Positions 16,649 through 38,487 are shown, numbered from the stretch's first letter. The stretch: DNA of 64,000 bases from a bacterium (GCA_040390065.1 JAZJZE010000001.1:337102-401101); one strand, 5' to 3'. Numbers and translations: made by a program. Notes: generated by a model from the sequence alone, not told the origin.

Positions 16649-16649
16649 C

Positions 16650-21210: not shown

Positions 21211-21270
21211 TTGCCGAGGAATGCGAAATCCATGCCAGGCTCATGAGGGCCCGGCCATGATGCGGCGGCC

Positions 21271-23616: not shown

Positions 23617-23633
23617 AGCGGTCCTGAGACCAT

Positions 23634-23659
23634 CCCTTTCCCCCTTTTCCTCCGTTTTT
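23634..23659 (+). terminator. Oligo-T rich stretch (archaeal terminator-like) after 22609..23616
   Basis: CCCTTTCCCCCTTTTCCTCCGTTTTTCG starts 18 nt after the stop codon. Confidence 0.4.
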
Positions 23660-23686
23660 CGTCGGCGAACCTGCTAGCGATGAGTG

Positions 23687-23694
23687 GGAAATCC
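23687..23694 (+). promoter_or_regulatory. TATA-like GAAATCCA about 30 nt upstream of ATG 23719
   Basis: The spacing fits a leaderless or short-leader archaeal promoter. The same WWATCC(A) core recurs upstream of other genes here. Confidence 0.35.
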
Positions 23695-23718
23695 AGTCAA
23701 CCTTGAAGGCGGCCCCAC

Positions 23719-26700
23719 ATGTCGACGGCTGCTTTTCCCATGACCGGCCCAACGACAACCTCACGCCGGCCATCCGGCGCAATCCTCGCAGCCTTGGTTG
23801 CACTCCTCGTCCTTCCTGCACTCCCCGCCGAGGCCGCGACCCCGCAGGACGTGTGGGTCCAGGCGACCGATGCCGTCGTGGCCCGCGCTCCCGCCAGCCT
23901 CCTCGACGAGCCGGATTTCCGTAATGCCAGCGCCCACCATGCCTACCGCACCGCCATGCTGGATGCCAGCGTTGCCCATGCCACCGCCTTGGCCCACGCG
24001 CTCTGGGAGGAAGCACAGAACGCGCCGAACCCGGCCCAGCAGTACTTGTATGAGCTGGCCAACGAGACGCAAGCCAACGCCGGTCGCATCGACCACGCGA
24101 GCGCGCGCATGGCCGCCCTCGAGGCCGGAGACCTGCACGCAAACCAGCTCGAAATCCTCCTCACCGCGGCCAACGTCCTTGCCGATGCCGAACAGGAACA
24201 CGTGCACGCCGTCGGGTACTTGATGCCCGAGCAGTCCGTCGACGTCTTCCGCTCCGAGACCGGGCGATACTCGTTTGCCCACCCCGTCGCCATGGCCGGC
24301 GACCTCGCGGCCGCGACCGAACGCATCCTCGATCTCGTGCCGGCGCCATCCGGGCCGCGGGCCGACCTTGCGGGCATGGCCCAGCGGATCAACGGGCTCT
24401 CGCTGCCCACGTTCCAGTGGCCGGTCGCCCATCCCGGCATCGTCGAGGAGACGGCGCGTCGAATCTATGCATACTCGGCTCTCCAGGGCAACACGACGGT
24501 CGCCGAGCTTGACGCAGTGATCCAGCAGTTGCCCGCTGAACGTCAGCGTCTGCAGGATGCCGGATATGACGGCGTGCATATCGTCGAAGTGCAAGGTGAT
24601 GCCTCCTGGTGGCTGACGCAGGCCCGGGCCGACCCCGACTCTGCAGTCACCGCTGGCGTCGTGCGCAGCCAAGCGGCGTACGCGCACGGTGCCATCCTGG
24701 AGGCCAACCTGCTCGCTGCTCCGGCCAACCGGCCGTCGTCGGCGGCCATGTGGATTGGCCTTGCGTGTGCGGGAGTTGCCCTCGTGGGCGGCCTGTGGTG
24801 GCGCGGACGCCGAAGGTCTGGCGGGCGGAAGGGCAAGGCGCTCCTTGGGCTGCTGGCACTGCTCATGGTGCTGCCACCGGTCCAGGGTGCGCTTGGAATG
24901 GCCGCCGTCAACGACCCGTCCGCCCCGCCGACCGTCGTCCCCGGCCCCGAAGGTGGAGCCTGGGGTTCTGCCGCCGCCCTTGCCAACGGCACACTGCTGT
25001 TTGCCTGGCCGTCCTGTCCCGGCACGTTCGTGGACGGGTGCTCCGACCTCTACCTGCGCATGTACGACCCAGTGGCCGACAAATGGAGCGCGTCGTGGCG
25101 CGCCGTCGACGACCTGTACCACGTCTCGATTGCCAAAGTGTTCCTCGTTGGGGCGGACGTCCACGTCGTCTGGGAGGAACAGCTGGGCAACGCGACCGCC
25201 CCCGTCGTCCTCGTCCATTGCGTGCTGTCCGGTCGCACGTGCGGCGCCCGCGAAACGTTCACGGACACCGCCGGAACGGCCATCATGTTCAGCGGCGCCG
25301 TCGGCGGCAACGGCCACCTGCGGATCGCCTACTTGCGCTCTGACCTGATGCAGGTGCATGTGCGCGAATGGTCGAGTGCCGGCTGGGGAGCCGACAAACG
25401 CTTCGACACGGGCTCGTCCCTGCAGACGCGCCCCAACGTCCTATGCGGGACCGACGGCGCCTGCTACGTCACATGGGAGGAGGGCGTGCCCGGATCCAAG
25501 GAGACGAAGGACCGGCGCGTCGAACTCGCCATCGTCGATGCCGGCGCAGATGTCGCCCGCAAAGTCATCACGGTCCCAGCCCAGGGCTCCTTCCAGCAGA
25601 TGGCCGCCGCCTTCCCCATCCCCGAGGGCGTCGGGGCCCTGTACGGCACGCAGCGGGACTTGTTCTTCGCGGTCCTCGACCCGGCCACGGGCCAATGGTC
25701 GGCGGCCACCAACGTGTCGCGCGGGCATCCGCCCACGGCCCCAGCCCTCGTGGGCGCGTACACGCTGGGCGGCGGTGACGTGCTTGCCGTGTGGCAGACC
25801 GGGACGGTCAACACGTTCCAGATGTGGGCGGCACGGCGCTCCGGCGGCTTCTGGCTCGCTCCCGAGCTGCTCGTCGGCAAACCCTACCAAGAACACATGT
25901 TCGTCCCGATGGCGCAGCCCCAAGCGTCGGGCGACCTGGTGTTGGCGTGGACCGGCAATGGGCCCGGCATCGCGGACAATATCCTGCTCACACGCCGCAT
26001 CGCCGGCGGCACGGCCCCGCCCCCAGGGCCTCCGACCGTGACGTGGCGCGAGCCTCGTGCTGGCGGCTGGACGGGTTCGGCCGTCGACCTGGCAGCGCAA
26101 CTCGAATTCGCCGCGACGCCGGACGCCGCCTCCGTGGTGCTCACCGTCGACGGCCGGGCGCTCGCAACGACGTTGTCGCCCGACGGCCACGCGCACGCAC
26201 GTGCGACGGGGCTTGCCGAAGGGGCGCACCACGTGACGCTGCATGCTGCAGACCGCTTGGGAGCAGCCTGCGATGAGCAATGGGATTTCGCCGTCGATGC
26301 AACGGCGCCGGCACTGAGTGTGCAGATCGTGGGTCCCGCGACATCCGCGTCTGCGCCCTGGGCAAACCAGGTGCTGACGGTCGTCGCCTCGGCTCCACAG
26401 GATGGCGGCAGCCCCGTCCACTTGCAGGTCGACCATGATGCCGCGGGCGATTGGCGCGACGCCACGGCGGCCGGCTGGAAGGCTGTCGGGCTGGTGCCGT
26501 CGATCATTGGTGCCGCCGTGCCCGAGAACCGCCTTCTCGACGTTCGCCTTCGTGCGGTCGATGACGCGGGGAACGTTGCCCTTGGCTCGCCGATGGCCCT
26601 TGGCTGGGACGCCACCCCGCCCCTGATGCAAGGCGGGCCGGCCCCGACGACGCGGCCAGGCCGGGTTCCTCTCCTCTTGACGGACCAGGCCGCAGCGGGA

Positions 26701-27228
26701 TCTCCACTCCACTACGAACTCCAGGTGTCGGGGCCCGGCGGCAACGCGCAGCAGACCTCCATGGACGGCATGGTCATCCTTCCCGCGGAAGGAACATGGC
26801 AAGTCCGTGGGCGCGCATCCGACGCCGCCGGAAATGCACAATCAATCGGCCCGTGGACCGTCGTGGTGGACGGCACGCCGCCGACGGTCTCGGTGGCGTG
26901 GCAGGGCGACGACTTCCGTCTCACCGCCAGCGACGCGGGAGGCCTCGCCCATGTGGCCATGACGGCTGGCGACGGCCGGCCCATCGAGTCGAACGCGACC
27001 GGCACCTCGGCGGCGTCGGATGGCCGCTGGGAGGGCGCCCCCATCGGGGTCAACGTCCGCGACGCGGCCGGAAACGAACTGTCGGGTTTCATTGCAGAGT
27101 CCGGCGGCCAACTCGTCGCGTCGGCGCCGGAAAAGCCGGCGGGGAAGTCGACGCCGGCACTGCCCCTCGCGCTGGTCGGCCTGGCCGTGCTGGGCCTTGC
27201 CCTAGGCCGGAGGCGCCAGGATGGCTGA
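23719..27228 (+). CDS. Large envelope protein: signal peptide, helical ectodomain, TM-basic loop-TM hairpin, beta-propeller-like region, Ig-like repeats, C-terminal TM anchor
   Basis: ATG start. LAALVALLVLPALPAEA signal. Internal AAMWIGLACAGVALVGGLWWRGRRRSGGRKGKALLGLLALLMVLPPVQGALG. Tail LPLALVGLAVLGLALGRRR. Confidence 0.8.
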   Translation: MSTAAFPMTGPTTTSRRPSGAILAALVALLVLPALPAEAATPQDVWVQATDAVVARAPASLLDEPDFRNASAHHAYRTAMLDASVAHATALAHALWEEAQNAPNPAQQYLYELANETQANAGRIDHASARMAALEAGDLHANQLEILLTAANVLADAEQEHVHAVGYLMPEQSVDVFRSETGRYSFAHPVAMAGDLAAATERILDLVPAPSGPRADLAGMAQRINGLSLPTFQWPVAHPGIVEETARRIYAYSALQGNTTVAELDAVIQQLPAERQRLQDAGYDGVHIVEVQGDASWWLTQARADPDSAVTAGVVRSQAAYAHGAILEANLLAAPANRPSSAAMWIGLACAGVALVGGLWWRGRRRSGGRKGKALLGLLALLMVLPPVQGALGMAAVNDPSAPPTVVPGPEGGAWGSAAALANGTLLFAWPSCPGTFVDGCSDLYLRMYDPVADKWSASWRAVDDLYHVSIAKVFLVGADVHVVWEEQLGNATAPVVLVHCVLSGRTCGARETFTDTAGTAIMFSGAVGGNGHLRIAYLRSDLMQVHVREWSSAGWGADKRFDTGSSLQTRPNVLCGTDGACYVTWEEGVPGSKETKDRRVELAIVDAGADVARKVITVPAQGSFQQMAAAFPIPEGVGALYGTQRDLFFAVLDPATGQWSAATNVSRGHPPTAPALVGAYTLGGGDVLAVWQTGTVNTFQMWAARRSGGFWLAPELLVGKPYQEHMFVPMAQPQASGDLVLAWTGNGPGIADNILLTRRIAGGTAPPPGPPTVTWREPRAGGWTGSAVDLAAQLEFAATPDAASVVLTVDGRALATTLSPDGHAHARATGLAEGAHHVTLHAADRLGAACDEQWDFAVDATAPALSVQIVGPATSASAPWANQVLTVVASAPQDGGSPVHLQVDHDAAGDWRDATAAGWKAVGLVPSIIGAAVPENRLLDVRLRAVDDAGNVALGSPMALGWDATPPLMQGGPAPTTRPGRVPLLLTDQAAAGSPLHYELQVSGPGGNAQQTSMDGMVILPAEGTWQVRGRASDAAGNAQSIGPWTVVVDGTPPTVSVAWQGDDFRLTASDAGGLAHVAMTAGDGRPIESNATGTSAASDGRWEGAPIGVNVRDAAGNELSGFIAESGGQLVASAPEKPAGKSTPALPLALVGLAVLGLALGRRRQDG

Positions 27229-27901
27229 CCCCGTGGAAAACGGCAATCCAGGCAGGGCGGAAGGTCCCGGGGCGAGCCCTGGTCCCCACCATTGGACGCG
27301 ACGCAACTCGCCCTCCCCCCGAAAGGCTGAAACACATGCACGCCTCTCCCGGAATGTGGTCGTGCCCGGTCTCCTGGTCCAGGATAGCGCGGGCCGGCCC
27401 TCCGCCGACGGCGAAGTGACCCGCCGACTCGCAGTCGTCGCCCGGATCCTCGCCGAGCAGCCCGGCTGCACGATCCAGGAAGTCGCACTCCAGCTGCAGT
27501 GCAGCCACACGACGGCCGCGTATCACCTCTCCAAGATGGCCGCGGCGGGCCGCGTCCTGCAGCGCCGCGAAGGAAGGGTCGTGCGCCACTACTTGGCCGG
27601 CGATGAGACGCCCGCCGCCTGGCTGCGCGCGTTTGTCGCGGAACCCAAGCGCCGCGAGCTTGCGGTCACCCTCGGCGGCACCGAACGCCGCGAATGGCCG
27701 GTGAACAAGCTTGCCCGCCACATCGGAATGCATCACGGATGGGTCATGCGATCGCTGCGCATGCTCGAGACGCAGCGCTTCATCGTCCTCATTCGGCCCC
27801 GCGCCAGGTATTACGTGCAACGGACCGCCGCGTTGCAGCAGGCGCTGCAAGAGGCGCAAACGGTTCGCGTTGTCGTCGAAGTCGTGACGGACCCGTCGTA
27901 G
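27221..27901 (+). CDS. Double winged-helix transcription regulator (ArsR/TrmB-like), soluble
   Basis: ATGGCTGA start/stop overlap with 23719..27228. HTH units TIQEVALQLQCSHTTAAYHLSKMAAAGRV and PVNKLARHIGMHHGWVMRSLRMLETQRFIV. Confidence 0.7.
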   Translation: MADPVENGNPGRAEGPGASPGPHHWTRRNSPSPRKAETHARLSRNVVVPGLLVQDSAGRPSADGEVTRRLAVVARILAEQPGCTIQEVALQLQCSHTTAAYHLSKMAAAGRVLQRREGRVVRHYLAGDETPAAWLRAFVAEPKRRELAVTLGGTERREWPVNKLARHIGMHHGWVMRSLRMLETQRFIVLIRPRARYYVQRTAALQQALQEAQTVRVVVEVVTDPS

Positions 27902-27966
27902 GGCCGGAACCGCGAGGCCGGCCGGGCCCCTGCAGAAAGTCGTGCTGACTCGAACGGAGTGCGGAC

Positions 27967-28241
27967 CTAGAGGTCATTGCATAACCTCCAGGAGGTCTGC
28001 GCGCGCCGGTTTGCAAGGAGTGCTAGGAGGTTGGGCCGACTTCGTGGCAGCGCCACGACGAGGTCCAGGCGACGACGCAATCCGCCGCAAAGCGGCGCGC
28101 CCTTGCGGGTCGTTTTCCGGCCACACACTCCTGGCGCCGGCGGTCTTGGCGGACTTCCGGCCCGCCGGCGACCGCCCCCGCCAGGATCGCGAAGGCCGGA
28201 AAACGACGCAGGCACCCTGGAAGCTATGCAATGACCTCTAG
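27967..28241. mobile_element. MITE-like element, 275 bp, ~26-bp terminal inverted repeats
   Basis: Left end CTAGAGGTCATTGCATAACCTCCAGG. Reverse complement of right end CTAGAGGTCATTGCATAGCTTCCAGG (24/26 match). No ORF of transposase size. Sits between convergent genes. Confidence 0.7.
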
Positions 28242-29743
28242 TGTTCGCTTCGTCGTGGGCGGCGCGACGGCCAGCCCCCAAGCAGGCTACGCAGAGCTGG
28301 ATCGCCCTCTGCGTCTTCGTGGAGGGTCGGGTCATGGCGGCGAGCGATGTCCAGCCAGGCGAGCGCGTCGTCGCGCAGGTCCAATCGGGCGAAGGTGCGC
28401 GCAGCCGTCAAGGCGTTGCTTGCCATCGCCTCTCCTTCATCGGCCGGGAACCGACGCTGCGCCTCTTGGTGGTCGCGGCGGGCCAGGTCGGCCTTTCCCA
28501 AGGCGCCATGGCAGCGGGCCCGCACTGCGTACGCGTCAGCGCACGATGGATCGAGTCGGATGGCCCGCGTGGCCCAGCGCCGCGCCTGTCGCCAGGCGGA
28601 ATCCTCCGCACTCGTGTGCGCGTGGGCCAATGCCCGGGAGGCGGCGGCGCGGCGGCGCGGACTCACGCGGGTCGGCAGGCGACGCCGCAGCAGGGCGGCG
28701 ATTGCGATTGCCACGAGAGCGGCGCCTAGAAGGTCAAGCCATAGCCATCCAGCGGGTCCAGGCGACGTGGCCATCGTCGCTGGGGACGTGGGGCCGGCCG
28801 TCTGCCCCGAGACCGCTACCGGGATGCCCGATTGAGCGGGGCCTGCCCGCAGCTTGAGGCTGCCCTCGAGGTGGAGGGTCAGACCGCCAACCGGCCCAGC
28901 CACCCCATCGCGCACGAGCGTGCCGACCGGGTTGTGCAGGTCGAGGCGGCCTTGGACGACCATCTCTGGCTGCTGCACGTAGACGAAGGCGATGTCGCCC
29001 AACTCGCTGGGGACGGTGAGCGCGCCGTGGGTGACTTCGAGGAATGCTTCCTGGTCGCGGGTCGCCCCGGGGTCCGCGCTCGGCCCGGCAAGGGGTTGCA
29101 TGCCCGTCGGAATGGAAACCCTTCCTTCCAGACTGTCGAGTTGCACGTCCCACTGCCAAAGGGCCAGGACGAAGTCTCCGGTGATGGTCGCGTTGGCAGG
29201 CGCGCACGGCTGCATGTGCACGGCTGCCTGGACGTCCGCCGTCAGCGTCGCGTGGACGCCGAGTTGGGAACTGTAGGTGAGGCTCTGGGCGTTCGTCGGC
29301 CGAGCGACGTTGCAGGTGATGGAATCGGTCCAGACTGGGGGCGCGTGGCCGGGCATCGGCTGCACGACGAACCAGTAGCCAGGTCGGTTCACGATTCCCG
29401 TGACGCTCGCAGCGTGGTAGTCGTTCTCGCTGTGATGGCGCCCCTGGGGCTGGCTCGCGATGATGCCGTGGACGACGATGTCCGCTTCGTCCACGACCAG
29501 GTGCAGGGCGTCTGCCCGCAGGGAGAAGGGCGACGAGGCCTGGGCATTGCTTGGGGCTCCTACAGGGACGTTGCCGCCCGAGGCCAACTCGAACGCACCC
29601 AGCGGGCCGCTTGTCGCGGTGAGGCCCGTGAGGTCGGCTTGGCTGACGGTCAGGGACCCCTGCACGTCGCTAGCCTCGGCAAGGCCGGCCATCGCAAGGA
29701 CAGCACAAATCAAGGCGGCGGGGAGGAGAGCGCGGGCCGTCAC
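28238..29743 (-). CDS. Single-pass membrane protein: extracytoplasmic domain plus cytoplasmic TPR-like repeats
   Basis: GTG at 29743, 7 nt after the stop of the upstream gene, gives (M)TARALLPAALICAVLAMAGLAEA signal. TM GWLWLDLLGAALVAIAIAALLRRR. C-terminal TPR-like helices (AYAVRARCHGALGKADLARRDHQEAQR). Confidence 0.7.
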   Translation of the reverse strand: MTARALLPAALICAVLAMAGLAEASDVQGSLTVSQADLTGLTATSGPLGAFELASGGNVPVGAPSNAQASSPFSLRADALHLVVDEADIVVHGIIASQPQGRHHSENDYHAASVTGIVNRPGYWFVVQPMPGHAPPVWTDSITCNVARPTNAQSLTYSSQLGVHATLTADVQAAVHMQPCAPANATITGDFVLALWQWDVQLDSLEGRVSIPTGMQPLAGPSADPGATRDQEAFLEVTHGALTVPSELGDIAFVYVQQPEMVVQGRLDLHNPVGTLVRDGVAGPVGGLTLHLEGSLKLRAGPAQSGIPVAVSGQTAGPTSPATMATSPGPAGWLWLDLLGAALVAIAIAALLRRRLPTRVSPRRRAAASRALAHAHTSAEDSAWRQARRWATRAIRLDPSCADAYAVRARCHGALGKADLARRDHQEAQRRFPADEGEAMASNALTAARTFARLDLRDDALAWLDIARRHDPTLHEDAEGDPALRSLLGGWPSRRPRRSEH

Positions 29744-29750
29744 GAGGCGA

Positions 29751-30272
29751 TCAGACCGGTGGCGGGAGGAGGCATTCCGTCCGGAGGTCGTAGAACGGGA
29801 AGCTCGGCAGCGAACGCACAATATTGGTGCAGTACGGGTACGGGAACAGGGTGCCGTCAATCAGGGTGGGCAGGCCGAGGGTGCCGAACACGCCGTTGTA
29901 GAGGGGTGGCGAGTGGACTACGATGGCTGCGGGGCCCTCGCCATCAGCCGTGATGGCGGCGATGCTGAAGACCGTCGGCATGGGGTCCGCCGCCGTCGTG
30001 AAGGTGAGGAGCGGGCCTTCGTAGACAATCTGGGCGTTGGCCTTGATGACGTAGCTCGTCACCGGGTTGGAGCCCGCGATGACGGGCGGGTCCCAGCGCA
30101 GCGCCACCGTGTTGGTGCTGTCGTCGTAGGCCGCGTTGACATGCGTCGGCATGCCGGGCGGCGTGTTGACTGGGTCGGCGTAGGTCGAGGCAGGAACGAG
30201 GATCATGAACAGGGCCGTCAGGAGGATGGCAGTAAAGGGTCGCGTCACGGGACAATCCACCACGGTTGGCAC
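29751..30272 (-). CDS. Secreted fibronectin type III domain protein
   Basis: FN3 pattern (VALRWDPP..VTSYVIKAN). Signal TRPFTAILLTALFMILVPASTYA. A GTG at 30248 is a likely alternative start. Confidence 0.65.
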   Translation of the reverse strand: MPTVVDCPVTRPFTAILLTALFMILVPASTYADPVNTPPGMPTHVNAAYDDSTNTVALRWDPPVIAGSNPVTSYVIKANAQIVYEGPLLTFTTAADPMPTVFSIAAITADGEGPAAIVVHSPPLYNGVFGTLGLPTLIDGTLFPYPYCTNIVRSLPSFPFYDLRTECLLPPPV

Positions 30273-30337
30273 AGAGCCGCGGCATATAGATGGGCGCCGT
30301 TCTTTTCATTCATCCATAGAGCGATGCGATGATGCCT

Positions 30338-30353
30338 GGATTTGCGGTAAATC
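30338..30353. promoter_or_regulatory. Imperfect palindrome GGATTT-GCGGT-AAATC in the divergent promoter region
   Basis: Seen directly in the 30273-30375 spacer. A CATATAGA TATA-like patch lies at 30283-30290. Confidence 0.3.
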
Positions 30354-30375
30354 TGCATTGGCCTGAAGATGGCCG

Positions 30376-30936
30376 GTGGTCTTCGGCCGCGTGGTGGTGC
30401 CGGGACCTTCGAGTCGACATCGGCTACGCAAGCCGAACGTGAATCGCAACCGCATCGAGGACACGGTCCGGCGCAGTCCGGGTGTCACCAAGAGCGAGTT
30501 GGCGCGCCTTTTGGGGCTTGGCTGGGGGACCATCTCCCATCACTTGGCCTTCCTCGAAAGCCAGGGCATCGTTGCGGCGTTCCCCGTCGGCAAGGGCGTA
30601 CGCCTGTACCCGGCTGGGCGCCCCGAGGCCCGTCTTCTCGCCGTCCTGTCGGATGGTCCCGGCGCCGCGCTCACGGCATTGCTGGCGCACCGCCCCGGCC
30701 AGACGCTCAGCGACCTGAGCCGCGGCCTCGGAATCTCCCGCAAGATCGTCCGCCGCCACCTCGGGCAGTTGGGCCGCGAGGGACTCGTCGGCGAGGCCGG
30801 CATGCACCGGCGCCGCTACTTCCTCCATGAAGGCGCGGCCGAGCGGGCCCAAGGCCTGCCCATCGAGGCTCCGGCGCCGCGCCTCTTCGTCGTCGCGAAC
30901 CAACCGGTGCTCCAGTCGGCAAGTCAGCCGGGGTAA
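30376..30936 (+). CDS. Double winged-helix transcription regulator (ArsR/TrmB-like), soluble
   Basis: HTH units TKSELARLLGLGWGTISHHLAFLESQGIV and TLSDLSRGLGISRKIVRRHLGQLGREGLV. Start uncertain (GTG 30376 or GTG 30439). Confidence 0.7.
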   Translation: MVFGRVVVPGPSSRHRLRKPNVNRNRIEDTVRRSPGVTKSELARLLGLGWGTISHHLAFLESQGIVAAFPVGKGVRLYPAGRPEARLLAVLSDGPGAALTALLAHRPGQTLSDLSRGLGISRKIVRRHLGQLGREGLVGEAGMHRRRYFLHEGAAERAQGLPIEAPAPRLFVVANQPVLQSASQPG

Positions 30937-30939
30937 GGT

Positions 30940-32340
30940 CTACGCTTCGTCGACGGCGTCGCCAACGCGGCCGGCCGCGACGCCGCCACCGCCCATCTGC
31001 GCGCCCGTCTTCGAGGTCTTCACGAAGACGCGCGGCTTGCGCAGCACGAACTCATCGAAGAACGCTGCCCAGGCGACGATGCTCAGCATGGTGTAATACA
31101 CGGGGAGGAAGGGCAGGGCGGCCACTTCGCGCCATTCGTGGCGGACACCGTCGATGGCATCGCGCACCATCATCGTGGCCCAGGACACAAACGGCGCCAC
31201 GGCGGCCGCCGTCCAGATCCAAGTCCATTGCGACGGCAAGGCCCCCACGTCGTACCCGAAGCGCCCAAGGATGCCAAGCGGCAGCAGCAGGATCAGCGCC
31301 ATCGGGATGAAGACGTATACGAACGTGAGGTACAGGTCGAGGCGCGGCAGGGCACGCACGCGCAGGCGATGGATGCGCGGCAAGTAGTGGGCTGCAACCT
31401 GGAACCAGCCGCGCGCCCAGCGCTTGCGTTGCGCCCACCAGGCCGCAAGGCGGGCGGGGTTCTCCTCGTGGGTCTGGATGCCCGGGTCGACGCGCAGGCG
31501 GCCGCCGCTGGCGTGGATGCGCACCGAGTAGTCGATGTCCTCGACGAGCTGCTCCTCCGAGTAGCCGCCGACGCGGTCGAACACCGACCGCCGGAAGAAC
31601 ACCTGGCCACCGCCGAAGAACGTGAAGCCGGAGGCCAGCTGTCGGGCGTAGATGTCGCCGCGTTCCAGGATGTCGCGCTCGATGCGCATCATGAGCGCCA
31701 GGGGCGATTCGCGGCCGTTCAGCCCAATGGCGCGTCCCTTGATGCAGTCGAGCTTCGGGTCGGCGAGGAACCAGCGGGCGGCGCGCTGCACGGCGTCGGG
31801 CTTGAGGACTTGGTCGGCGTCGAGGCCAACGAGGATGTCGCCGTGGCACTGCGCCACACCGTCGTTGAAGGCAGCGGACTTGCCCGGCCGGCCGCCGGAG
31901 CGCTCGAACACGCGGAAGCGCGGGTCGCGTTCGGCCTGGTCGCGAAGGAGTTGCTGCGTGCCGTCGTTCGAGCGCGATTCGCAGACGTACAGGAACTCGA
32001 TGCGGTCACGCGGATAGTCGACGTGGGCGAGGGCCGCCATGGACCGCGGCAGGACGTTGGCCTCGTTGTACGTGGGGATGAGGATGGTGACGCGCGGCCA
32101 TTCGGCGCCGTCGGGCTTGGCGGGCGGTTCCGGGTTGCGGCGCAGCCCCGCGATGCACGAGCCGTAGGTCCGCACGAGGGGGAACGCCATGAGGGCCACG
32201 AGGACCACGCCGACCACGGCGAAGTAGTGGGGCACGAAGAAGCCGGGGACGAGCAGCAGGAGCGTGCAAGCCAGCATGGCGAGCGTGGTGGCGACGATCT
32301 CGCCCCAGTCCGGGCGGTCGCGGTGCAGGCTCACTTCCAT
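30940..32340 (-). CDS. Membrane-embedded family-2 glycosyltransferase, processive beta-glycan synthase type
   Basis: ATG at 32340 (MEVSLHRD..). N-terminal TMs. Motifs LDADQ (DxD), VEDIDYS (ED), QRKRWARG (QxxRW). C-terminal TM bundle. Confidence 0.85.
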   Translation of the reverse strand: MEVSLHRDRPDWGEIVATTLAMLACTLLLLVPGFFVPHYFAVVGVVLVALMAFPLVRTYGSCIAGLRRNPEPPAKPDGAEWPRVTILIPTYNEANVLPRSMAALAHVDYPRDRIEFLYVCESRSNDGTQQLLRDQAERDPRFRVFERSGGRPGKSAAFNDGVAQCHGDILVGLDADQVLKPDAVQRAARWFLADPKLDCIKGRAIGLNGRESPLALMMRIERDILERGDIYARQLASGFTFFGGGQVFFRRSVFDRVGGYSEEQLVEDIDYSVRIHASGGRLRVDPGIQTHEENPARLAAWWAQRKRWARGWFQVAAHYLPRIHRLRVRALPRLDLYLTFVYVFIPMALILLLPLGILGRFGYDVGALPSQWTWIWTAAAVAPFVSWATMMVRDAIDGVRHEWREVAALPFLPVYYTMLSIVAWAAFFDEFVLRKPRVFVKTSKTGAQMGGGGVAAGRVGDAVDEA

Positions 32341-33761
32341 GGCATGGCCTCTTCGAGGATGGACTCCGCCCGGACGGGCGCGACGGCGGGGGCGGCGGGC
32401 AAGGCGGGCTCCGCGCCGGTTTTGGACGTCTTCACGTACACCGGCTTCGTCCGCAGCACGAACTCGTCGAGGAAGGCGCTTGCGAACACGGCGCCCTGCA
32501 GGACAAGGTAGGGCCAAAGGAGCGGCACGGCCAACCACTCGACGGCCGCGTGCTTCACGCCGTCGCGCCGGTCGTGCCACCACATGCCGATCCAGGCCAC
32601 GGTGGGCATCGCCGCGAAGAAGATGCCGCCGAAGGTCTCGACGGCTTGCGGGAAGAACGTGCGGACGTGGATGCCGAGGAAGGGCATGATGACGAACGGC
32701 AGCGTCATCAGCAGCACGACCGGCAGGAGCGAGAACGCGAGGTTGTAGAACAGGTCGGCGCGCATGCCAAGCGGTGCGCGGTTCATGGTCGACAGGTGCG
32801 GCAGGTAGCGCTCCACCAGTTGCATGCCGCCGCGCGTCCAGCGCGTGCGCTGCGCCCACCACGCCGACCAGTTGGCCGGGTGCTCCTCATGGCTAATCAC
32901 GAACGGGTCGACGACAAGGCGGTAGCCGGCCTGGTGGATGCGCACCGAGAAGTCGATGTCCTCGATCAGGACCTCCTCGTCGAAGCGGCCGATCTGCTCG
33001 AACAGGCTGCGGCGGAAGAACGCCTGGCCGCCGCCGAAGAACGTGAAGCCGCCGACGACCTCGCGGAAGTAGGTCTCGCCGCGCTCGACGACGTCGCGTT
33101 CGAGCGTCGTGCACAGGGCCAGCGTCGACTCCGTCGCGTTCACGGCCATGGGGCGACCCTTCACGCAGGCGATGTTCGGGTCCGACAGGAACCAGCGCAC
33201 GGCGCGCTCGATGGCGTCCGGCTTGAGGGCGTGGTCCGCGTCCAAGGAGACCAGGATTTCGCCCGTGCAGTGGTCGAGGCCGAAGTTGCACGCCGCCGCC
33301 TTGCCGCCGCGCTTGTCGTTTCGTTCGACCGGCACGATGCGCGCGTCGCGTTCGGCAAAGGAGCGGATGATCGCGGCCGTCGCGTCGGTGCTGCGCTTCT
33401 CGTAGACGTACACGAACTCGATGCGGTCGCGGGGGTAGCGCACATGCTCCATCGCAGCCATCGTGCGTGGCAGGACCGCCGCCTCGTTGTAGGCGACGAT
33501 GAGGACGGACACGGTCGGCCACTCGATGCCGTCGGGCTTTGCCGGGGGGTCCACGGGGCGTCGACCGGTCAGGATCGTGGCCGCCAGGGTGCGCACGCCG
33601 AGGATGGCCAGGCCGACGAAGCCGGCGGTGGCAAGCACGCGGAAGTAGCCGTCGACGTACAGGCCGGGGGCGAGGGCCAGGAGGAGCAGGCCGAGGCCGA
33701 TGCCGAGCTTGCGCGCCACGTCGCGTGGCCGTGCGCGCCTGCCCGACAGCTTGACCTCCAT
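32331..33761 (-). CDS. Membrane-embedded family-2 glycosyltransferase, processive type (paralogue of 30940..32340)
   Basis: ATG at 33761 (MEVKLSGRR..). Motifs LDADH, IEDIDFS, QRTRWTRG. 10-nt overlap with the downstream paralogue. Confidence 0.85.
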   Translation of the reverse strand: MEVKLSGRRARPRDVARKLGIGLGLLLLALAPGLYVDGYFRVLATAGFVGLAILGVRTLAATILTGRRPVDPPAKPDGIEWPTVSVLIVAYNEAAVLPRTMAAMEHVRYPRDRIEFVYVYEKRSTDATAAIIRSFAERDARIVPVERNDKRGGKAAACNFGLDHCTGEILVSLDADHALKPDAIERAVRWFLSDPNIACVKGRPMAVNATESTLALCTTLERDVVERGETYFREVVGGFTFFGGGQAFFRRSLFEQIGRFDEEVLIEDIDFSVRIHQAGYRLVVDPFVISHEEHPANWSAWWAQRTRWTRGGMQLVERYLPHLSTMNRAPLGMRADLFYNLAFSLLPVVLLMTLPFVIMPFLGIHVRTFFPQAVETFGGIFFAAMPTVAWIGMWWHDRRDGVKHAAVEWLAVPLLWPYLVLQGAVFASAFLDEFVLRTKPVYVKTSKTGAEPALPAAPAVAPVRAESILEEAMPWK

Positions 33762-33860
33762 CGCATTGTCTCCCGGGCAGGCCCCACCGGACCCGCCGCA
33801 CCCTCGCACGACCTCCCCACATTCATGAAGGTATGGGTTGACTTCCTTCCTGGGGCGAGG

Positions 33861-33866
33861 AAAAAA
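33861..33866 (-). terminator. T6 run 14 nt downstream of the 33880..35640 stop codon
   Basis: GGAAAAAAGG on the plus strand. Archaeal oligo-T terminator-like. Confidence 0.3.
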
Positions 33867-33879
33867 GGCGGCGTTGCGG

Positions 33880-35640
33880 CTACCGGTGGTAGGCCGCGTC
33901 GAAGTCCTTGCGGGCCGTTGCATCCTTCAGGATGGTCGCGGCGTAGACGTCGGATCCGGCCAGCCGGCCCGCCTCGCCCGTGTGCCGTGTGTCCGCCCAG
34001 AAGACCGTGGCCGATTCCTTGCTCGTGTCCAGCCCGATGTAGTCGCCGATGAAGGGCGCGCCGCTCTGGTGGTGGCCGAGGTCGCCATCGAACGAGCGCT
34101 CCGTCACGCGCACGTTGGGGTGGAAACTGTCGCCGCCGTTGTCCGAATAGGCGTAGTACACGTCGAGCAGGCGGTTGTCCGGCGAGTTGCGCCGGTCGTA
34201 CCACGCGACGTGCACCCCGCCCAGCGGGTCGACGTCGACCCAGGGCACGAATTGGTCGCCCTTCTCCGTGTCGCTGACGCGCACCGGTGCACTCCAGGCC
34301 ATGCCATCGTCGGAGTGCCGCATCATGAGCTGCACGTCCGTGTTGACGCGCCCGGTCTGCTCGGCGTAGACGACGTAGCGCCGGCCATCGTGGGCCCCGC
34401 CGGATGTATCGATGGCGAGCACCGGGTACGTGGCGACGCGGAAATGGCTGGGTCCGGTTCCGTCGCGCGGGCCGACGCTTGGGTCGGACTTGATGGGCGA
34501 GATGGTGAACGTCGACATGACGGGGGCGAAAACGGTGCCGCCGGGTGTGACCGTCCCTTCCGTGTACGACAGTTGGTCGCCGTTCGGGTGGACGCCCACG
34601 GGCAGGGTTCCGTCGGTGTCGGCCGCCCAGATGACAGCGACGCGCGGCATGCCGCCGGGACCGTTGGGCAGATACTGCGGCATGGAGAATTGCGAATCGA
34701 GGCCGCTCGACGTGCCGGGGGCGAACGTGTGCTGCGGGCCCCAGGTCTTGCCACCGTCCATGCTCTCGCAATAACTGATGACGCTCGTCGACTGCGCGAG
34801 CAGGCCGGTCGGGTCGGGGACGCCGCTGGGCAGCGGCGGCGTCGAGTAGTACGGTGTCCACGTCACGATCGCATGGTCGCCGCCCGGCTGCAACGCGAAC
34901 CACTGCTTGTCATTGAATTGGATGCCGTTGTCGCCGACACCGCAGAACGAGATGGCGCCGAAGGTCTTGCCGCCGTCCGTGCTGGTTGCGAAGTAGATCT
35001 GTGTTGCCGTGGTGGCGTCCGTCGACCCCGGATAGACCGGGTTGGGCTGGCTCGGAACCTGACCGGCATGCGCACCGCCGTAGTTGAGGCCCGAGAACAC
35101 GAAGGTGCCATCGTCGTCGAACGCCACGACCGGGTCCGTGTTGCAGGTGTTTCCAGAGATGGCGCTTGGACGCTTGTCGCCGGGGAAGCCAGGCATGAGG
35201 TCGTCGTTCCACGTCAGGCCGCCGTCCAGGCTGGAGAACGTGCCCATCCACACGTTGTATTTCCCGCAACCTGCGCCGCCCCCGAGGTAGGAGACCGTGT
35301 AGTCCTTCGCGCCGCCCGCGACGTTGAGCGGGTTCGTCGGATTCACGGCGACGGACACCTCGTTGCCCGGCCCATGCTGCGTCGTCCAGTCCATCGTGTG
35401 GTTGTCGACGAGCGGATGCGTCACGCGATGGTTGCACTCGTCGATGCCGGCCTGCGACGCCGCCGCCCCGATGCGGTAGCCGGCATTGCACAGGAAGATG
35501 GTGTACGGTGCGGCGCCCGCCAGGTCGGAGTCGGTCGCCGTCGGGGGCAACGCCGGCCCCGTGTCGTCGCTGCCGCCGAAACAGCCGGCCAGCAAGGGGA
35601 CCAGAAACGCCGCCAGGGCAAGTGCGGGCTTTGCCTTCAT
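33880..35640 (-). CDS. BNR/Asp-box beta-propeller lipoprotein (sialidase/glycosidase-like fold)
   Basis: MKAKPALALAAFLVPLLAGC lipobox. Asp-boxes SLDGGLTW, STDGGKTF, SMDGGKTW, HSDDGMAW, SDNGGDSF. Confidence 0.8.
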   Translation of the reverse strand: MKAKPALALAAFLVPLLAGCFGGSDDTGPALPPTATDSDLAGAAPYTIFLCNAGYRIGAAASQAGIDECNHRVTHPLVDNHTMDWTTQHGPGNEVSVAVNPTNPLNVAGGAKDYTVSYLGGGAGCGKYNVWMGTFSSLDGGLTWNDDLMPGFPGDKRPSAISGNTCNTDPVVAFDDDGTFVFSGLNYGGAHAGQVPSQPNPVYPGSTDATTATQIYFATSTDGGKTFGAISFCGVGDNGIQFNDKQWFALQPGGDHAIVTWTPYYSTPPLPSGVPDPTGLLAQSTSVISYCESMDGGKTWGPQHTFAPGTSSGLDSQFSMPQYLPNGPGGMPRVAVIWAADTDGTLPVGVHPNGDQLSYTEGTVTPGGTVFAPVMSTFTISPIKSDPSVGPRDGTGPSHFRVATYPVLAIDTSGGAHDGRRYVVYAEQTGRVNTDVQLMMRHSDDGMAWSAPVRVSDTEKGDQFVPWVDVDPLGGVHVAWYDRRNSPDNRLLDVYYAYSDNGGDSFHPNVRVTERSFDGDLGHHQSGAPFIGDYIGLDTSKESATVFWADTRHTGEAGRLAGSDVYAATILKDATARKDFDAAYHR

Positions 35641-35707: not shown

Positions 35708-37051
35708 TCAGTACGATTCCAAGGTACGCTGCAGGCGGCACCGGGCCAGGAGGTCCGCATGGGCCTGCCACGTCTTGAACTGGCAGTGCCGGTCGATGTG
35801 GCGCAGTGCGGATTCGACGTCTTCGAAGACGAGCGGCCGAGCGGCCATCGTCAAGCGGGACACTTCGCGCACGACCCAGACGCCAAGCGGTGTCGTGTAG
35901 TCGTCGGTAATCTCGCGTAGGACGATTGCGGTCGCCTGGCGGCCAGTCGCAATCATGTGTTCGAGGACGGCCAGTCGCGTGGCGTAGTATCCCCCCGCGG
36001 TGGCGGCGTACGTCGTGCGGCCCGCGTGGTCTTCCCAGTCCGCCTCCACGATCCCGGATGCCCCCTCGGCCAGGGGCATGCCAGAGCTGGCCCAAAAACT
36101 CCCCTTCAGCCAGGCCTCGATGGATTCGAACCCCCAAACGCGCGGCAGCAGAAGCGCGAAAAAGCGGTTGCCGAAGCGCTCGCCGACGTGCAGAATCGGT
36201 TTGTCGATGGTCGGCAGGTCACGCACCTTCTCGATCAAGGCCTTGCCGACCTGGTCGTCCGTCGCCGTGATGGCCCAACGCGTCGGCACGAGCTTGCGGT
36301 TCTGCCCGAGGCCGAGCAGGCCCGCCGAGAGCACCCGTTCCAATTGGTACACCGAGGTGCCGCCGGCGTACAGGCCCGCGATGGCTTCGCCGGCCCGCAA
36401 GTCGGTGTCGCCCGCCGCGCGTTCGAGGGGCCGCTCGACGCGCACGTTCTCGGCAAGTGTGGCGCGCTCCACTTCGGCGCTCGGCCCGTGCGGTGGGGCA
36501 AAGTCGCCCACGGTCGGGGCACCGAAACGCGGGGCTTTTGCCAGATGCACCTCGGTGTCGATGGGCCGGGCGGCGAGCGCGAGCTCTTGGCTGAGGCGGG
36601 TGATGCGGTCGGGGGAGAACACGTCGCCGGCAAGCCGCGCCACGTCGCGCACGGCCACTTTGTGCGTGGTGCGCAGCAGGCTCGAGCGCAGGCCCACGAT
36701 GTCCGGGATGGTCATGCCAAGCCACTCTGCGGGCGAGTCGAGGCGGCGCGCGGCGTCGGCCTCGCGGTGCTCGGGGGGCAACATCGGGCCGATTGCCACA
36801 TTGGGGTATCCATGGCGGCCGACGAACAGGCTCGGCGGCGAACTGCCAAACACGTCGCGCCCCAGATGTCCCCCCTCGCGCACGACCTTGGGCATCTGCG
36901 AGCGGATCTTCTGCAACAGCGGGCAGGGGTCGTAGCCGCAGAGCATTCTCGCCCCCTTGCACGAGACGCAGAGCCTCGGGTCGATGGTGGCGAGGACCTG
37001 ATCCAGCTCCGTGCCGTCGCCATGGCCACCACACGCTTTAAGAATCCCCAA
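35708..37051 (-). CDS. Nre-family (archaeal DNA-repair-associated) protein
   Basis: N-terminal LCVSCKGARMLCGYDPCP motif and ~445-aa length recall archaeal NreA-type proteins (from memory). The only in-frame start is TTG 37051. Confidence 0.55.
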   Translation of the reverse strand: MGILKACGGHGDGTELDQVLATIDPRLCVSCKGARMLCGYDPCPLLQKIRSQMPKVVREGGHLGRDVFGSSPPSLFVGRHGYPNVAIGPMLPPEHREADAARRLDSPAEWLGMTIPDIVGLRSSLLRTTHKVAVRDVARLAGDVFSPDRITRLSQELALAARPIDTEVHLAKAPRFGAPTVGDFAPPHGPSAEVERATLAENVRVERPLERAAGDTDLRAGEAIAGLYAGGTSVYQLERVLSAGLLGLGQNRKLVPTRWAITATDDQVGKALIEKVRDLPTIDKPILHVGERFGNRFFALLLPRVWGFESIEAWLKGSFWASSGMPLAEGASGIVEADWEDHAGRTTYAATAGGYYATRLAVLEHMIATGRQATAIVLREITDDYTTPLGVWVVREVSRLTMAARPLVFEDVESALRHIDRHCQFKTWQAHADLLARCRLQRTLESY

Positions 37052-37065
37052 GGGGAGGCCGACAC

Positions 37066-38487
37066 ATGGGCAGGGCCACCGTCGCAGTCGCCGTCTTGGC
37101 GCTGTTTGCCGCGGGGTGCGCCGTGCCCGCGCCGACCCATCTGCCCGGTCGGACGCCGCCCGAGACGCCGCTCGAGATCCCGACCGTGGGCGTCATGGAA
37201 GGCGCCTTCGCGGTCATGCATCGTGGCGGCACCTTGTCCTTCGGCTTGTCCGCAGGCGCAGCCAACCTCACGCTCTTTGCGCCCGACGACCACCGCGTCG
37301 CCGGCTTCCGACTCGATACGATCCACGCACGCCTCGACATGCAGGCGGCCGCGGGTGAATACGTCATGGTCGCCGTGCCGCAGAGGCAGGTCGCCATCGG
37401 GTTCTGGGTCGCGTCGGCGGGGGAAACGCTGCCCGTGCTGCGCAAGTTGCCGTGGGTGTCCGGATTCGCCGTGCTCGCCGATGACAACTCCTTGCCGACC
37501 GAAGGCATGCTGCCGGGCGCCGGCCCATCGGTCCGCCAAGTGAACGTGACCGTGGAGGCGCCCCCTGTGTGGGCCGTGGCACTCGTCGCCGCCGGCGAAT
37601 ACCAGGACCTTGAAGTCGAGTTGCACACCGACGCGGGCGCCCTCCTCGAGGCCAGCAGTGCCGGGAGCCCGTTCGGCCTGCTCGTGCCCCTGCCCGCCCT
37701 GCAAGGCCATCAGGAGTGGAGCGTGCCTGCAAAGACCTACCTCGGCAGCGCCTCGGGCCACGTGGTGGCTGGCGTCGTGCGCTACACGGCCCTCGACGGC
37801 GCCATTCTGCTGACCTGGACGACGTACAGCCGGGCGGGTCACCTCTCCGCGGTCGCCACGGAGCCCTCCCCGACCGGCTTCTCGTACGGTCCGCTCGGGC
37901 CTCGCCCGCTCTTGGCCCACGTCAGCGGCGACGCCGCGAAGCTGACCCTTGCAGCGCCGGACCCCATGGCCGGCCCCGGCATCGTGCAAGTGTGGGACCC
38001 GGACGATCACCCCCTCGGGCCGTTTCGCGTCCCTGCGGGTGCCAACGTCAGCCTGCCCGTGCACCGTGGCGGCGCCTACATCTTCCTCGTCCTCAACGGC
38101 ACGGTCGAACTCGGGGCCGACGACGCCCCGGCGGACCAGTCCCTGTACACGTTGCCGGTGGAGGCACAGCAATTCCCCCTCCGCCGCAGCAGCGTGAGCG
38201 GCCGCTTCGTCGAGGAGACGCAACCCATGGCCGTGGCAACGGGCGCAGTCCCCTTCGGCTTGCAGGCATCCGTCATTTCGCCCTCCACGGCAATCGGATT
38301 CTGCTCCGACGACGTCCACCTCCAGGTCTTGCAGGGGAACGCGACGATCGGCTCGAACGGCCCGGGCGACTGGTGGCAGGCGGCCATTTTCATGGACGGG
38401 CAGCCACTGCAGATCCATTCGACGGGCTTCGGCGAGGACAGCTGCGAGCAAGCCGGCGTCGACCTCTTGTCCTTTTCCCGCCCGTAG
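37066..38487 (+). CDS. Lipoprotein, unknown function
   Basis: MGRATVAVAVLALFAAGC lipobox. High third-position GC. Only 14 bp from the divergent Nre-like start. Confidence 0.65.
   Translation: MGRATVAVAVLALFAAGCAVPAPTHLPGRTPPETPLEIPTVGVMEGAFAVMHRGGTLSFGLSAGAANLTLFAPDDHRVAGFRLDTIHARLDMQAAAGEYVMVAVPQRQVAIGFWVASAGETLPVLRKLPWVSGFAVLADDNSLPTEGMLPGAGPSVRQVNVTVEAPPVWAVALVAAGEYQDLEVELHTDAGALLEASSAGSPFGLLVPLPALQGHQEWSVPAKTYLGSASGHVVAGVVRYTALDGAILLTWTTYSRAGHLSAVATEPSPTGFSYGPLGPRPLLAHVSGDAAKLTLAAPDPMAGPGIVQVWDPDDHPLGPFRVPAGANVSLPVHRGGAYIFLVLNGTVELGADDAPADQSLYTLPVEAQQFPLRRSSVSGRFVEETQPMAVATGAVPFGLQASVISPSTAIGFCSDDVHLQVLQGNATIGSNGPGDWWQAAIFMDGQPLQIHSTGFGEDSCEQAGVDLLSFSRP

Follow-up and report, generated by a model that had tools for sequence, protein, structure and literature searches.

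Gene pair and conserved motifs

We have analysed a stretch of 64,000 nucleotides of DNA (GCA_040390065.1 JAZJZE010000001.1:337102-401101; hereafter the window, about 68% G+C) that carries on its minus strand two adjacent genes for membrane-bound family 2 glycosyltransferases (GT2), which we call GT2A and GT2B. The original prediction for this DNA had joined the pair with a BNR lipoprotein, a winged helix-turn-helix (wHTH) regulator, a secreted FN3 protein and a membrane protein in a multi-gene exopolysaccharide system. From the comparison with related genomes, this apparent six-gene system is a duplicated conserved core gene, a clade-specific propeller gene and an unrelated, recently inserted module. 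GT2A and GT2B appear to be lineage-specific tandem duplicates within an uncharacterised archaeal family, and we see about an even chance that each of them is a self-sufficient minimal enzyme of the BcsA/PgaC class, with an inverting mechanism, whose product at the membrane is a beta-linked oligo- or polysaccharide. The pair has the following features:

32331..33761, minus strand: GT2A, a 476-aa membrane GT2 (open reading frame (ORF) and translation, Pfam, AlphaFold2 (AF2), Foldseek, invariant residues)
30940..32340, minus strand: GT2B, a 466-aa paralogue of GT2A that keeps every family-invariant residue (ORF and translation)
33234..33242, 32958..32963 and 32838..32852, minus strand: DAD, ED and QRTRW motifs of GT2A (translated coordinates)
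31813..31821, 31537..31542 and 31417..31431, minus strand: DAD, ED and QRKRW motifs of GT2B (translated coordinates)
32415..32441, minus strand: C-terminal motif VYVKTSKTG of GT2A, conserved in the family
31003..31029, minus strand: C-terminal motif VFVKTSKTG of GT2B, conserved in the family

The two genes overlap by exactly 10 nt, with the TGA stop of GT2A at 32333..32331 and the ATG of GT2B at 32340..32338, and their products are 48% identical over 448 aa (E 1e-133). The deposited names of MES2153855-57 are 'glycosyltransferase family 2 protein' for GT2B (MES2153855.1) and GT2A (MES2153856.1) and 'sialidase family protein' for the third. Both GT2 proteins score far above the Pfam cut-offs for Glycos_transf_2, Glyco_tranf_2_3 and Glyco_trans_2_3. 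The motif residues of GT2A are D126, D174xD176, E267-D268 and Q304RTRW308, and the corresponding D, DxD, ED and QRxRW motifs are invariant in 51 of 51 family members, GT2A and GT2B included. This 51-sequence alignment contains 26 invariant columns (among them D126, K154, D174, E267, D268, Q304, R305, R307 and W308), all of which are retained by both window copies. On these points the original prediction was accurate: the two minus-strand genes, their coordinates and 10-nt overlap and the DxD, ED and QxxRW motifs in both proteins were found as it had described them, and its architecture of N-terminal transmembrane (TM) helices, a GT-A domain and a C-terminal TM bundle agrees with the AF2 helices and the Pfam GT2 domains.

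Predicted fold and relatedness

The AF2 model of GT2A, built with the family alignment as input (pLDDT 92.2, pTM 0.89), shows two N-terminal TM helices (residues 12-30 and 39-64), the GT-A domain and an interface helix (298-325) that carries QRTRW, and on the C-terminal side three hydrophobic helices (331-362, 372-399 and 406-435), a strand (441-444) and a disordered tail. Positive-inside reasoning on the sequence places the GT domain in the cytoplasm, between the TM helices. Foldseek searches against the PDB returned PcManGT (E 3e-18), BcsA (E 4e-18, TMq 0.60-0.64) and hyaluronan synthase (HAS; TMq up to 0.63, for 7sp9, at a root-mean-square deviation of 5.3 Å over 450 columns), the overall range being TMq 0.55-0.64 and E 1e-15 to 1e-18.

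At the level of profiles, the family matches R. sphaeroides BcsA with 132 bits over positions 47-412, from the second N-terminal TM helix through the GT domain, the interface helix IF2 and TM5/6 into the segment past TM6. With DPMS, GtrB and ArnC, the same profile gives 39-45 bits only, and in the N-terminal half only (about 83-197). The hhalign probabilities are 99.8 for E. coli PgaC and 99.4 for E. coli BcsA, in alignments that end at IF2 (PgaC, column 341) and at TM5 (BcsA, column 369) and are uninformative on the C-terminal membrane part. The top NCBIfam scores of the two proteins are those of glycan-chain-forming enzymes. For GT2A and GT2B, respectively, we obtained 123 and 110 bits with PgaC_IcaA (TIGR03937; cut-off 422), 94 and 80 bits with CelA (TIGR03030; cut-off 699), 83 and 79 bits with MftF (cut-off 280), 70 and 67 bits with the BcsA model NF008558 (cut-off 992), and 39 and 55 bits with NodC; no NCBIfam equivalog cut-off was reached by either protein. 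The models of polyprenyl-phosphate sugar synthases and lipid glycosyltransferases gave 20-45 bits only (ArnC 31, HpnI 35, AglJ 22).

By their motif set and cellulose-synthase-like fold, GT2A and GT2B fall in the class of membrane GT2 synthases (BcsA/PgaC/HAS/NodC). They fall outside the class of polyprenyl-phosphate sugar synthases (DPMS/GtrB/ArnC/AglD-J), with which they align in part only, and they have an invariant QRxRW. The family thus falls in the cellulose-synthase-like branch of GT2 and corresponds roughly to the BcsA core minus TM1-2, TM7-8 and the PilZ domain.

The C-terminal motif of the family, V-[YF]-V-[KT]-[TS]-x-[KR]-[TS]-G, lies 138 aa past QRxRW behind a long hydrophobic helix, and the GT2A protein ends about 30 aa beyond it. 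The gating loop of E. coli BcsA, KFNVTAKGG, has an equivalent position, 124 aa past QRIRW and behind IF3. Accordingly, the GT2 proteins have a [YF]xxTxK motif where the FxVTxK gating loop of BcsA would sit, a resemblance that is without statistical support as homology and that we regard as a lead only.

The N-terminus of the proteins is also conserved in the family, as M-[ED]-V-x-L (GT2A residues 1-5, window 33747..33761), and is predicted to be a beta-strand, as is the C-terminal VYVKT (GT2A 441-449, window 32415..32441). These N- and C-terminal strands of GT2A may come together across the active site and form a lid or an auto-inhibitory element.

Distribution of the family and its neighbours

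A scan of 185,579 species genomes yielded 184 relatives, of which the best 79 loci are described here. These loci are mostly from Halobacteria (many genera), with others from Nanohaloarchaea, Thermoplasmatota, a few metagenome-assembled genomes (MAGs) of Methanosarcinales and several MAGs of Planctomycetota. Across about 80 loci, the gene is normally single. When the ORFs from 88 loci were clustered all against all into neighbour families, full-length tandem GT2 pairs were present only in the window, in L001/L009 and in L008, and no neighbour family occurred within 5 kb in more than eight loci. That a single gene occurs without conserved neighbours fits a self-sufficient enzyme. The original prediction had suggested a heteromeric synthase; of about 83 non-redundant loci, just three have the tandem pair, so a heteromeric synthase is not a property of the family.

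A Pfam census of the 129 immediate neighbours of the family loci gave 220 families, without any PilZ or BcsB. The most frequent was PMT_2 (nine), and every other family occurred at most four times. In seven haloarchaeal loci (L014, L015, L017, L025, L026, L028 and L033), a PMT_2-like GT-C gene follows the GT2 gene on its strand after a gap of about 44-375 nt, and in five loci (L005, L024, L044, L059 and L060) one stands upstream in divergent orientation. In L008 (6631-9867), two PMT_2 genes stand directly upstream of GT2A, beside a DPMS/GtrA-ManC fusion gene. The PMT_2-like genes of these three arrangements fall into subfamilies without a tblastn link between them. Three independent juxtapositions are unlikely to arise by chance, by a rough estimate in which this class makes up about 0.1-0.3% of a genome. 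No PMT_2 gene lies beside the GT2 pair in the window.

Members 35-42% identical to GT2A were observed on contigs binned as Planctomycetota (L057, L063, L067, L072, L073, L074 and L076; Phycisphaerae, Pirellulales and Sedimentisphaerales), which reflect either inter-domain transfer or binning errors. Two homologues are plasmid-borne, L075 (CP046868.1) and L079 (CP040681.1), in Salinibaculum litoreum and Halostella pelagica, indicating that the gene is at least sometimes accessory and mobile in haloarchaea. The GT2 gene of L075 lies beside a Bat-like PAS-GAF-HTH_10 regulator and unknown genes, none of which is conserved elsewhere.

History of the locus

The closest relatives of the locus are L001 (GCA_964627625.1, GT2A 85% identical) and L008 (a Logan contig, GT2A 78% identical). 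The comparison with them involves three further genes of the window:

33880..35640, minus strand: BNR lipoprotein, 586 aa, upstream of GT2A with a gap of 118 nt; lipobox LAGC at 35581..35592
35708..37051, minus strand: NreA (Pfam Nre_N and Nre_C)
13395..14516, convergent with GT2B: DAO, an FAD oxidoreductase gene

On the minus strand the order, from upstream to downstream, is NreA, BNR, GT2A and GT2B. Both L001 and L008 keep NreA ... BNR-GT2A-GT2B ... DAO, with GT2A and GT2B 62 nt apart and not overlapping. A contig from JGI (P0095), whose BNR orthologue is 60% identical, has NreA-BNR-GT2-DAO with a single GT2. More distant Thermoplasmata loci (L002, L010 and L011; 57%, 55% and 56% identity to GT2A) have HisRS-ADSL-NreA-GT2-DAO or a similar order, again with a single GT2 and here without BNR. 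Thus, BNR and GT2 are neighbours in four genomes only, all closely related (the window, L001, L008 and the P0095 contig), and BNR orthologues of 54% and 51% identity are located at other sites, away from any GT2. Between DAO and GT2 there are 8 nt (P0095 contig), 58 nt (L001) and about 1.4 kb (L008). Since DAO is close to GT2 in these relatives, positions 14517..30939 of the window represent a lineage-specific segment.

With every relative, GT2B of the window shares about 50% identity, and this holds for the GT2B proteins in the corresponding position of L001 (48.6%) and L008 (50%) as well. In a neighbour-joining (NJ) tree from one alignment, the GT2A clade, the clade of the relatives' GT2B and the GT2B of the window form three separate lineages, the last on a long branch; the two copies would accordingly be old or fast-evolving duplicates. 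The simplest reading of these arrangements is a nested accretion at a conserved spot, in which a single core GT2 would have been joined by BNR in a sub-clade, followed by the GT2 duplication (window, L001 and L008) and then, in the lineage of the window alone, by an insertion of 16.4 kb.

The multi-gene exopolysaccharide system of the original prediction does not hold up in these neighbourhoods: over about 80 loci, its wHTH, FN3 and TM genes are unconserved and BNR is confined to a narrow clade. The prediction itself had named two observations that would speak against it, unconserved flanking genes and a place of both GT2 proteins among non-processive dolichyl-phosphate or N-glycosylation transferases. 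The former is what we found. As to the latter, the GT2 proteins score far from dolichyl- and undecaprenyl-phosphate sugar synthases, but their top match among solved structures, PcManGT, was published as a mannosyltransferase of the N-glycan pathway.

The source of the window is labelled a bacterium, its closest relative (L009) an uncultured Halobacteriales archaeon, and the next relatives are Thermoplasmata/Thermoplasmatota, so that the taxonomic labels conflict. The window carries an archaeal NreA and a gene for an Rpb3/Rpb11-type RNA-polymerase subunit, with archaeal ribosomal and RNA-polymerase genes on both sides, and because of these genes we consider it archaeal.

In two Thermoplasmata genomes, a CheY-like Response_reg gene lies divergently upstream of the single GT2 (L002:9425-9853 and L092:4129-4524, both on the minus strand); none is present in the window. 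Such a stand-alone receiver could be a regulatory link to GT2.

The BNR lipoprotein

The BNR protein has four canonical Asp-boxes (residues 137, 220, 293 and 499) and a degenerate one (443, SDDGMAW). Of the predicted lipoprotein with five Asp-boxes, the lipobox and the upstream position on the same strand were therefore correct, and the five clean boxes became four plus one. Its AF2 model is a six-bladed propeller (pLDDT 89.9). In Foldseek, sialidases (NanA, the M. viridifaciens enzyme and Neu2) are on top with TMq 0.35-0.40, 10-15% identity and large insertions, and GH93 arabinanases and PL25 ulvan lyase match the propeller as well as the sialidases do. All Pfam BNR models stay below their cut-offs. 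More than 400 homologues exist, mainly in Thermoplasmatota, with the NCBI label 'sialidase family'. In an alignment of 72 of these sequences, R401 is invariant and R552 is conserved in at least 90%, and Y534, E94 and several Asp residues are also conserved; a third conserved Arg, as in the sialidase triad, was not seen in this alignment. Accordingly, the protein shares the six-bladed propeller and the Asp-boxes with GH33 sialidases, but the full Arg triad is not evident. We did not adopt the assignment as a sialidase, which has fold matches only, equalled by those of GH93 and PL25. We regard the BNR protein as a propeller with the sialidase fold that is anchored in the membrane and lies outside the cell; a role in glycan processing is plausible for it but unproven.

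Thirteen nucleotides past the BNR stop, before the 118-nt gap to GT2A, there is a T6 run (33862..33867, minus strand). A T-run after a stop codon is an archaeal terminator-like signal. This run may be a terminator that separates BNR from GT2A, and it argues weakly against an obligatory co-transcription of the two genes.

Comparison with known systems

In working principle, the closest known systems are PgaC, BcsA and the single-protein HAS, and the closest solved structure in both sequence and fold is PcManGT. E. coli PgaC (b1022) is similar in size to the GT2 proteins (441 versus 466-476 aa) and shares their layout of two N-terminal TM helices, a GT-A domain and C-terminal TM helices, together with the same D/DxD/ED/QRxRW set. 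PgaC/IcaA is the best NCBIfam match and has the best hhalign score (E 2e-28, 26% identity over 242 columns), in an alignment limited to the GT domain and IF2 (84-341), without the C-terminal membrane part. The PgaD, PgaB (deacetylase/hydrolase) and PgaA of such systems are not found with the GT2 pair. The proteins lie outside the PgaC/IcaA family proper, as they stay below its hidden Markov model (HMM) cut-off and no deacetylase or small two-TM partner is conserved nearby.

BcsA (PDB 4hg6, 4p00 and 5ej1; E. coli b3533) has motifs with equivalents in the GT2 proteins, namely HAKAGN (GGKAAA), DxD, FFCGS (FFGGG), TED (VED) and QRxRW. On the other hand, the GT2 proteins are about half the size of BcsA and are without its N-terminal TM1-2, TM7-8 and PilZ domain, the last indicating that they are not under cyclic di-GMP control. 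The partners BcsB, BcsC and BcsZ are not found with the pair, and HMM cut-offs, partners and domain content all place the proteins outside the BcsA family proper. In agreement with the original prediction that canonical partners are absent, Pfam scans of the neighbouring window genes found no BcsB, PilZ, PgaB-type deacetylase or PgaD.

Class I HAS (Chlorella virus and Xenopus; PDB 7sp9 and 8smn) is a single-protein synthase-translocase without partner subunits. It is 12-15% identical to the GT2 proteins, with profile hits of 29-62 bits in part of the GT domain only. Viral and vertebrate HAS have two further C-terminal TM helices.

PcManGT of Pyrobaculum calidifontis (PDB 6yv7-9) is, like the GT2 family, an archaeal GT2 with a 'minimal cellulose-synthase-like fold', and it matches by sequence with E 1.6e-24 (single sequence) and 3e-39 (profile). 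The alignment stops at residue 305, before the RW of QRxRW, where PcManGT reads WRIRRA; the window proteins keep QRxRW and have extra helices in comparison. PcManGT has 355 aa and three TM helices (PMC10569066), and it binds GDP-Man and has D223 as its catalytic base (PMC12595478). In our alignment, D223 corresponds to D268 of GT2A. PcManGT is reportedly dependent on dolichyl phosphate, and its gene is said to lie in a cluster rich in glycosyltransferase genes, unlike the genes of the GT2A/GT2B family, which are usually solitary. The tunnel of BcsA, for its part, is reportedly formed by six TM helices.

Proposed mechanism and alternative explanations

In the mechanism that we propose, the GT-A domain would be held on the cytoplasmic face by the two N-terminal TM helices and would bind the nucleoside diphosphate sugar through D126, D174xD176 and a metal ion. 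D268 of the ED motif would act as the catalytic base, and W308 of QRxRW would hold the growing acceptor by its non-reducing end, at the entrance to a groove or channel that the interface helix and the C-terminal helices would build in the membrane. Beta-linked sugars would be added repeatedly, and the oligo- or polysaccharide would be fed into or across the membrane without dedicated partners. We infer processivity, export and the sugar used in this scheme, and GT2A and GT2B could act separately or together. The BNR lipoprotein might act on the product outside the cell in the narrow clade where it occurs, and nothing in the scheme requires it. We favour this synthase mechanism because QRxRW is invariant, the BcsA alignment reaches the membrane part and chain-forming enzymes are the top HMM hits.

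Several results weigh against it. PcManGT, the best PDB match by both sequence and fold, was published as a mannosyltransferase of the N-glycan pathway (title cited in PMC8993221). Only four to five membrane helices are predicted, with helix 406-435 perhaps interfacial, fewer than the six of the BcsA tunnel, so that a closed translocation channel is at most a possibility. Ceramide glucosyltransferase aligns with the family profile over query positions 44-309 and shares QxxRW; since it aligns across this same region, QxxRW alone is not diagnostic of processivity. Accordingly, the processive-synthase signature of the original prediction stands as a placement on the BcsA/PgaC/HAS side (profile, hhalign and Foldseek) but not as proof of processivity. 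When E. coli BcsA and PgaC were scanned with a position-specific scoring matrix of family positions 437-449, the gating loop of BcsA came only third and nothing scored above the shuffle null, so that the resemblance to this loop failed the test. The sole recurring neighbour, the PMT_2-type GT-C, belongs to a class with polyprenyl-phosphate-linked donors and hints at lipid-linked chemistry. Literature searches found no characterised member of this archaeal clade, and so no product, donor or acceptor. The few helices, the PcManGT match, the QxxRW of ceramide glucosyltransferase and the GT-C neighbours support the main rival explanation, a lipid-acceptor glycosyltransferase that transfers one or a few sugars onto a membrane-embedded acceptor for envelope glycosylation. 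The acceptor could be dolichyl phosphate or a dolichyl-phosphate-linked glycan, as proposed for PcManGT, or a glycolipid of archaeol or glycerol dialkyl glycerol tetraether. In this case, the few TM helices, without an equivalent of TM7/8 of BcsA, would form a 'half tunnel' for the lipid, and the product would be used, in some lineages, by the adjacent PMT_2-type GT-C. In its favour, the Pfam model Glyco_transf_21 scores above its cut-off (45.7 versus 21.7 bits), and the Thermoplasmata gene lies in a conserved housekeeping block (HisRS-ADSL-NreA-GT2-DAO), as for a core envelope function. Further, PMT_2-like genes lead the census of immediate neighbours (9/129), in three subfamilies and orientations that are unrelated to one another, and the L008 pair follows two of them and the DPMS/GtrA-ManC fusion. 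Against it, the PcManGT alignment ends before RW while QRxRW is invariant in the family, and the profile reaches further into the membrane part of BcsA than into that of PcManGT. Scores to known lipid-acceptor enzymes are also low (ceramide glucosyltransferase 30 bits, HpnI 35, ArnC 31-45 and DPMS 42), and the window itself is without an adjacent PMT_2 gene. We regard this explanation as a real possibility, short of a probable one.

The remaining explanations concern what the two copies and their neighbours do together. That GT2A and GT2B are subfunctionalised duplicates, working independently on different donors, linkages or acceptors, with a fast-evolving GT2B of new specificity, would explain why the GT2B of the window is equally distant from every relative while GT2A is 85% and 78% identical to its counterparts, and it agrees with the three lineages of the NJ tree. 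A single-alignment NJ tree counts for little as evidence, both copies retain all 26 invariant positions, and no specificity-determining residues are known; we consider this explanation rather unlikely. Marginally better placed, but still unlikely in our view, is a two-enzyme pathway for an envelope glycan, undescribed so far, in Halobacteria, Nanohaloarchaea and Thermoplasmatota. In it, the family would be the smallest cellulose-synthase-type enzyme (about the TM3-6 core of BcsA, with a gating-loop-like tail at its end), alone or as a dimer, and would work with a PMT_2-type GT-C, the tandem pair of the window being a heterodimeric elaboration. In one version, the GT-C would decorate or attach a translocated beta-glycan on the outside of the cell; in the other, the GT2 would make and flip a lipid-linked oligosaccharide donor. 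The original model of a heteromeric synthase, or of two polymers, within a dedicated exopolysaccharide or biofilm system of all flanking genes (BNR as trimming hydrolase, wHTH as regulator, FN3 and TM-TPR proteins as extracellular and membrane accessories) can point to the overlapping genes with intact catalytic residues and to the BNR-GT2A-GT2B order kept in three genomes. Synthase-dependent bacterial systems also usually include a hydrolase, and the E. coli operons hold bcsZ and pgaB. However, the wHTH, FN3 and TM-TPR genes are absent beside the pair in its close relatives and in all other loci, the TM-TPR protein is without a homologue, and the wHTH gene runs towards GT2B from the opposite strand and has its upstream spacer in common with the divergently oriented FN3 gene. 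The link of BNR to the pair is also loose: there is the T6 run after its stop, one relative combines BNR with just one GT2, BNR orthologues of 51-54% identity sit elsewhere, and GT2 orthologues of 54-57% identity occur without BNR. Moreover, the GT2 genes are 62 nt apart in L001 and L008, and with only two Arg at 90% or more in its family, a sialidase-type catalytic site of BNR is unproven. We consider this model very improbable.

Archaeal genes for cellulose- or PNAG-synthase-like GT2 enzymes are already routinely annotated (including by JGI), and it is the clade itself that is uncharacterised; the duplicate gene, the neighbouring propeller and the inserted segment belong to the history of this locus and do not make a new system. 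Archaeal cellulose-synthase-like GT2 genes have also been discussed as biofilm genes of ancient origin (PMC10086821). If a beta-glycan is indeed exported with four to five helices and no partners, the family would set a lower size limit for synthase-translocases and would reveal an unknown envelope polymer in haloarchaea and in Thermoplasmatota of soil or sediment. If a lipid carrier is glycosylated instead, the full D/DxD/ED/QRxRW set does not imply a polysaccharide synthase, which calls for caution in annotation.

Flanking genes and the 16.4-kb segment

The genes that the original prediction had placed on the other side of the pair belong to the lineage-specific segment, whose features are as follows:

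14517..30939: lineage-specific 16.4-kb segment, flanked by GT2B and DAO (convergent with each other) and missing in the closest relatives
30376..30936, plus strand: double winged-helix (ArsR-type) regulator (Pfam HTH_5, HTH_24 and HTH_20; stretches 23-80 and 99-147)
29751..30272, minus strand: small secreted protein with a weak FN3/Ig-like signal (fn3 19 bits, cut-off 25)
28238..29743, minus strand: ORFan membrane protein with a signal peptide, an outer domain of about 330 aa, one TM helix and a C-terminal helical tail
23719..27228: very large secreted protein of 1169 aa
21271..22413, plus strand: 380-aa protein with a Lysyl_oxidase domain (Pfam E 1.9e-22)
16605..20099: large secreted protein with Big_9/cadherin/FN3/PKD domains
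14588..16648: large secreted protein with TSP3 and PKD domains

The wHTH gene is convergent with GT2B, with 3 nt between their ends, and divergent from the FN3 gene across an AT-richer spacer of 103 nt. The FN3 gene is the first of a two-gene unit with the TM protein, whose GTG at 29743 is 7 nt past the FN3 stop; the TM protein probably starts at this GTG or at the ATG at 29692 rather than at 29860. Its signal/TM segment covers residues 39-57 and its TM helix residues 373-391. The TPR signal of the TM protein stays below threshold (Pfam E 0.06-0.2; NCBIfam 19 bits versus a cut-off of 32), and a search of 5.8 billion proteins returned only the protein itself. By tblastn, the wHTH genes and the FN3 and TM genes have no homologue beside the GT2 pair in L001 and L008, and their homologues stand beside none of the about 80 family loci. 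Accordingly, the two wHTH stretches of the predicted double regulator are real but its part in a GT2 system is contradicted by orientation and by its absence from relatives; the secreted FN3 protein is indeed small and secreted with a weak FN3 call; and the predicted membrane protein keeps its TM segment while its TPR-like repeats are not significant.

The wHTH, FN3 and TM proteins appear from their sequences and distribution to be a module unrelated to the GT2 pair and recently inserted. Because of the shared divergent spacer, the wHTH gene is the natural candidate for a regulator of the FN3/TM pair. Regulation of the GT2 pair by wHTH was rejected on account of its convergent orientation and its lack of conservation beside GT2.

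The segment as a whole contains adhesin-like large secreted proteins, a lysyl-oxidase-like gene, two wHTH regulators, the FN3/TM pair and unknown genes, and it has the look of an island of surface proteins. By tblastn, the L001 and L008 loci hold no homologue of the large secreted proteins at 14.6-27.2 kb. Lysyl_oxidase is an unusual family for an archaeon, and its gene stands amid the adhesin-like genes.

Two further genes for secreted proteins without Pfam hits lie on the other side of NreA:

37066..38487, plus strand: secreted protein adjoining NreA
39966..41333, plus strand: secreted protein flanking ADSL/NreA, with an Asp-box-like SNNNGVSW

The protein at 39966..41333 may, judging from this motif, be another propeller. 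The one at 37066..38487 is conserved in its place beside NreA in L001 (48% identity) and weakly in L002.

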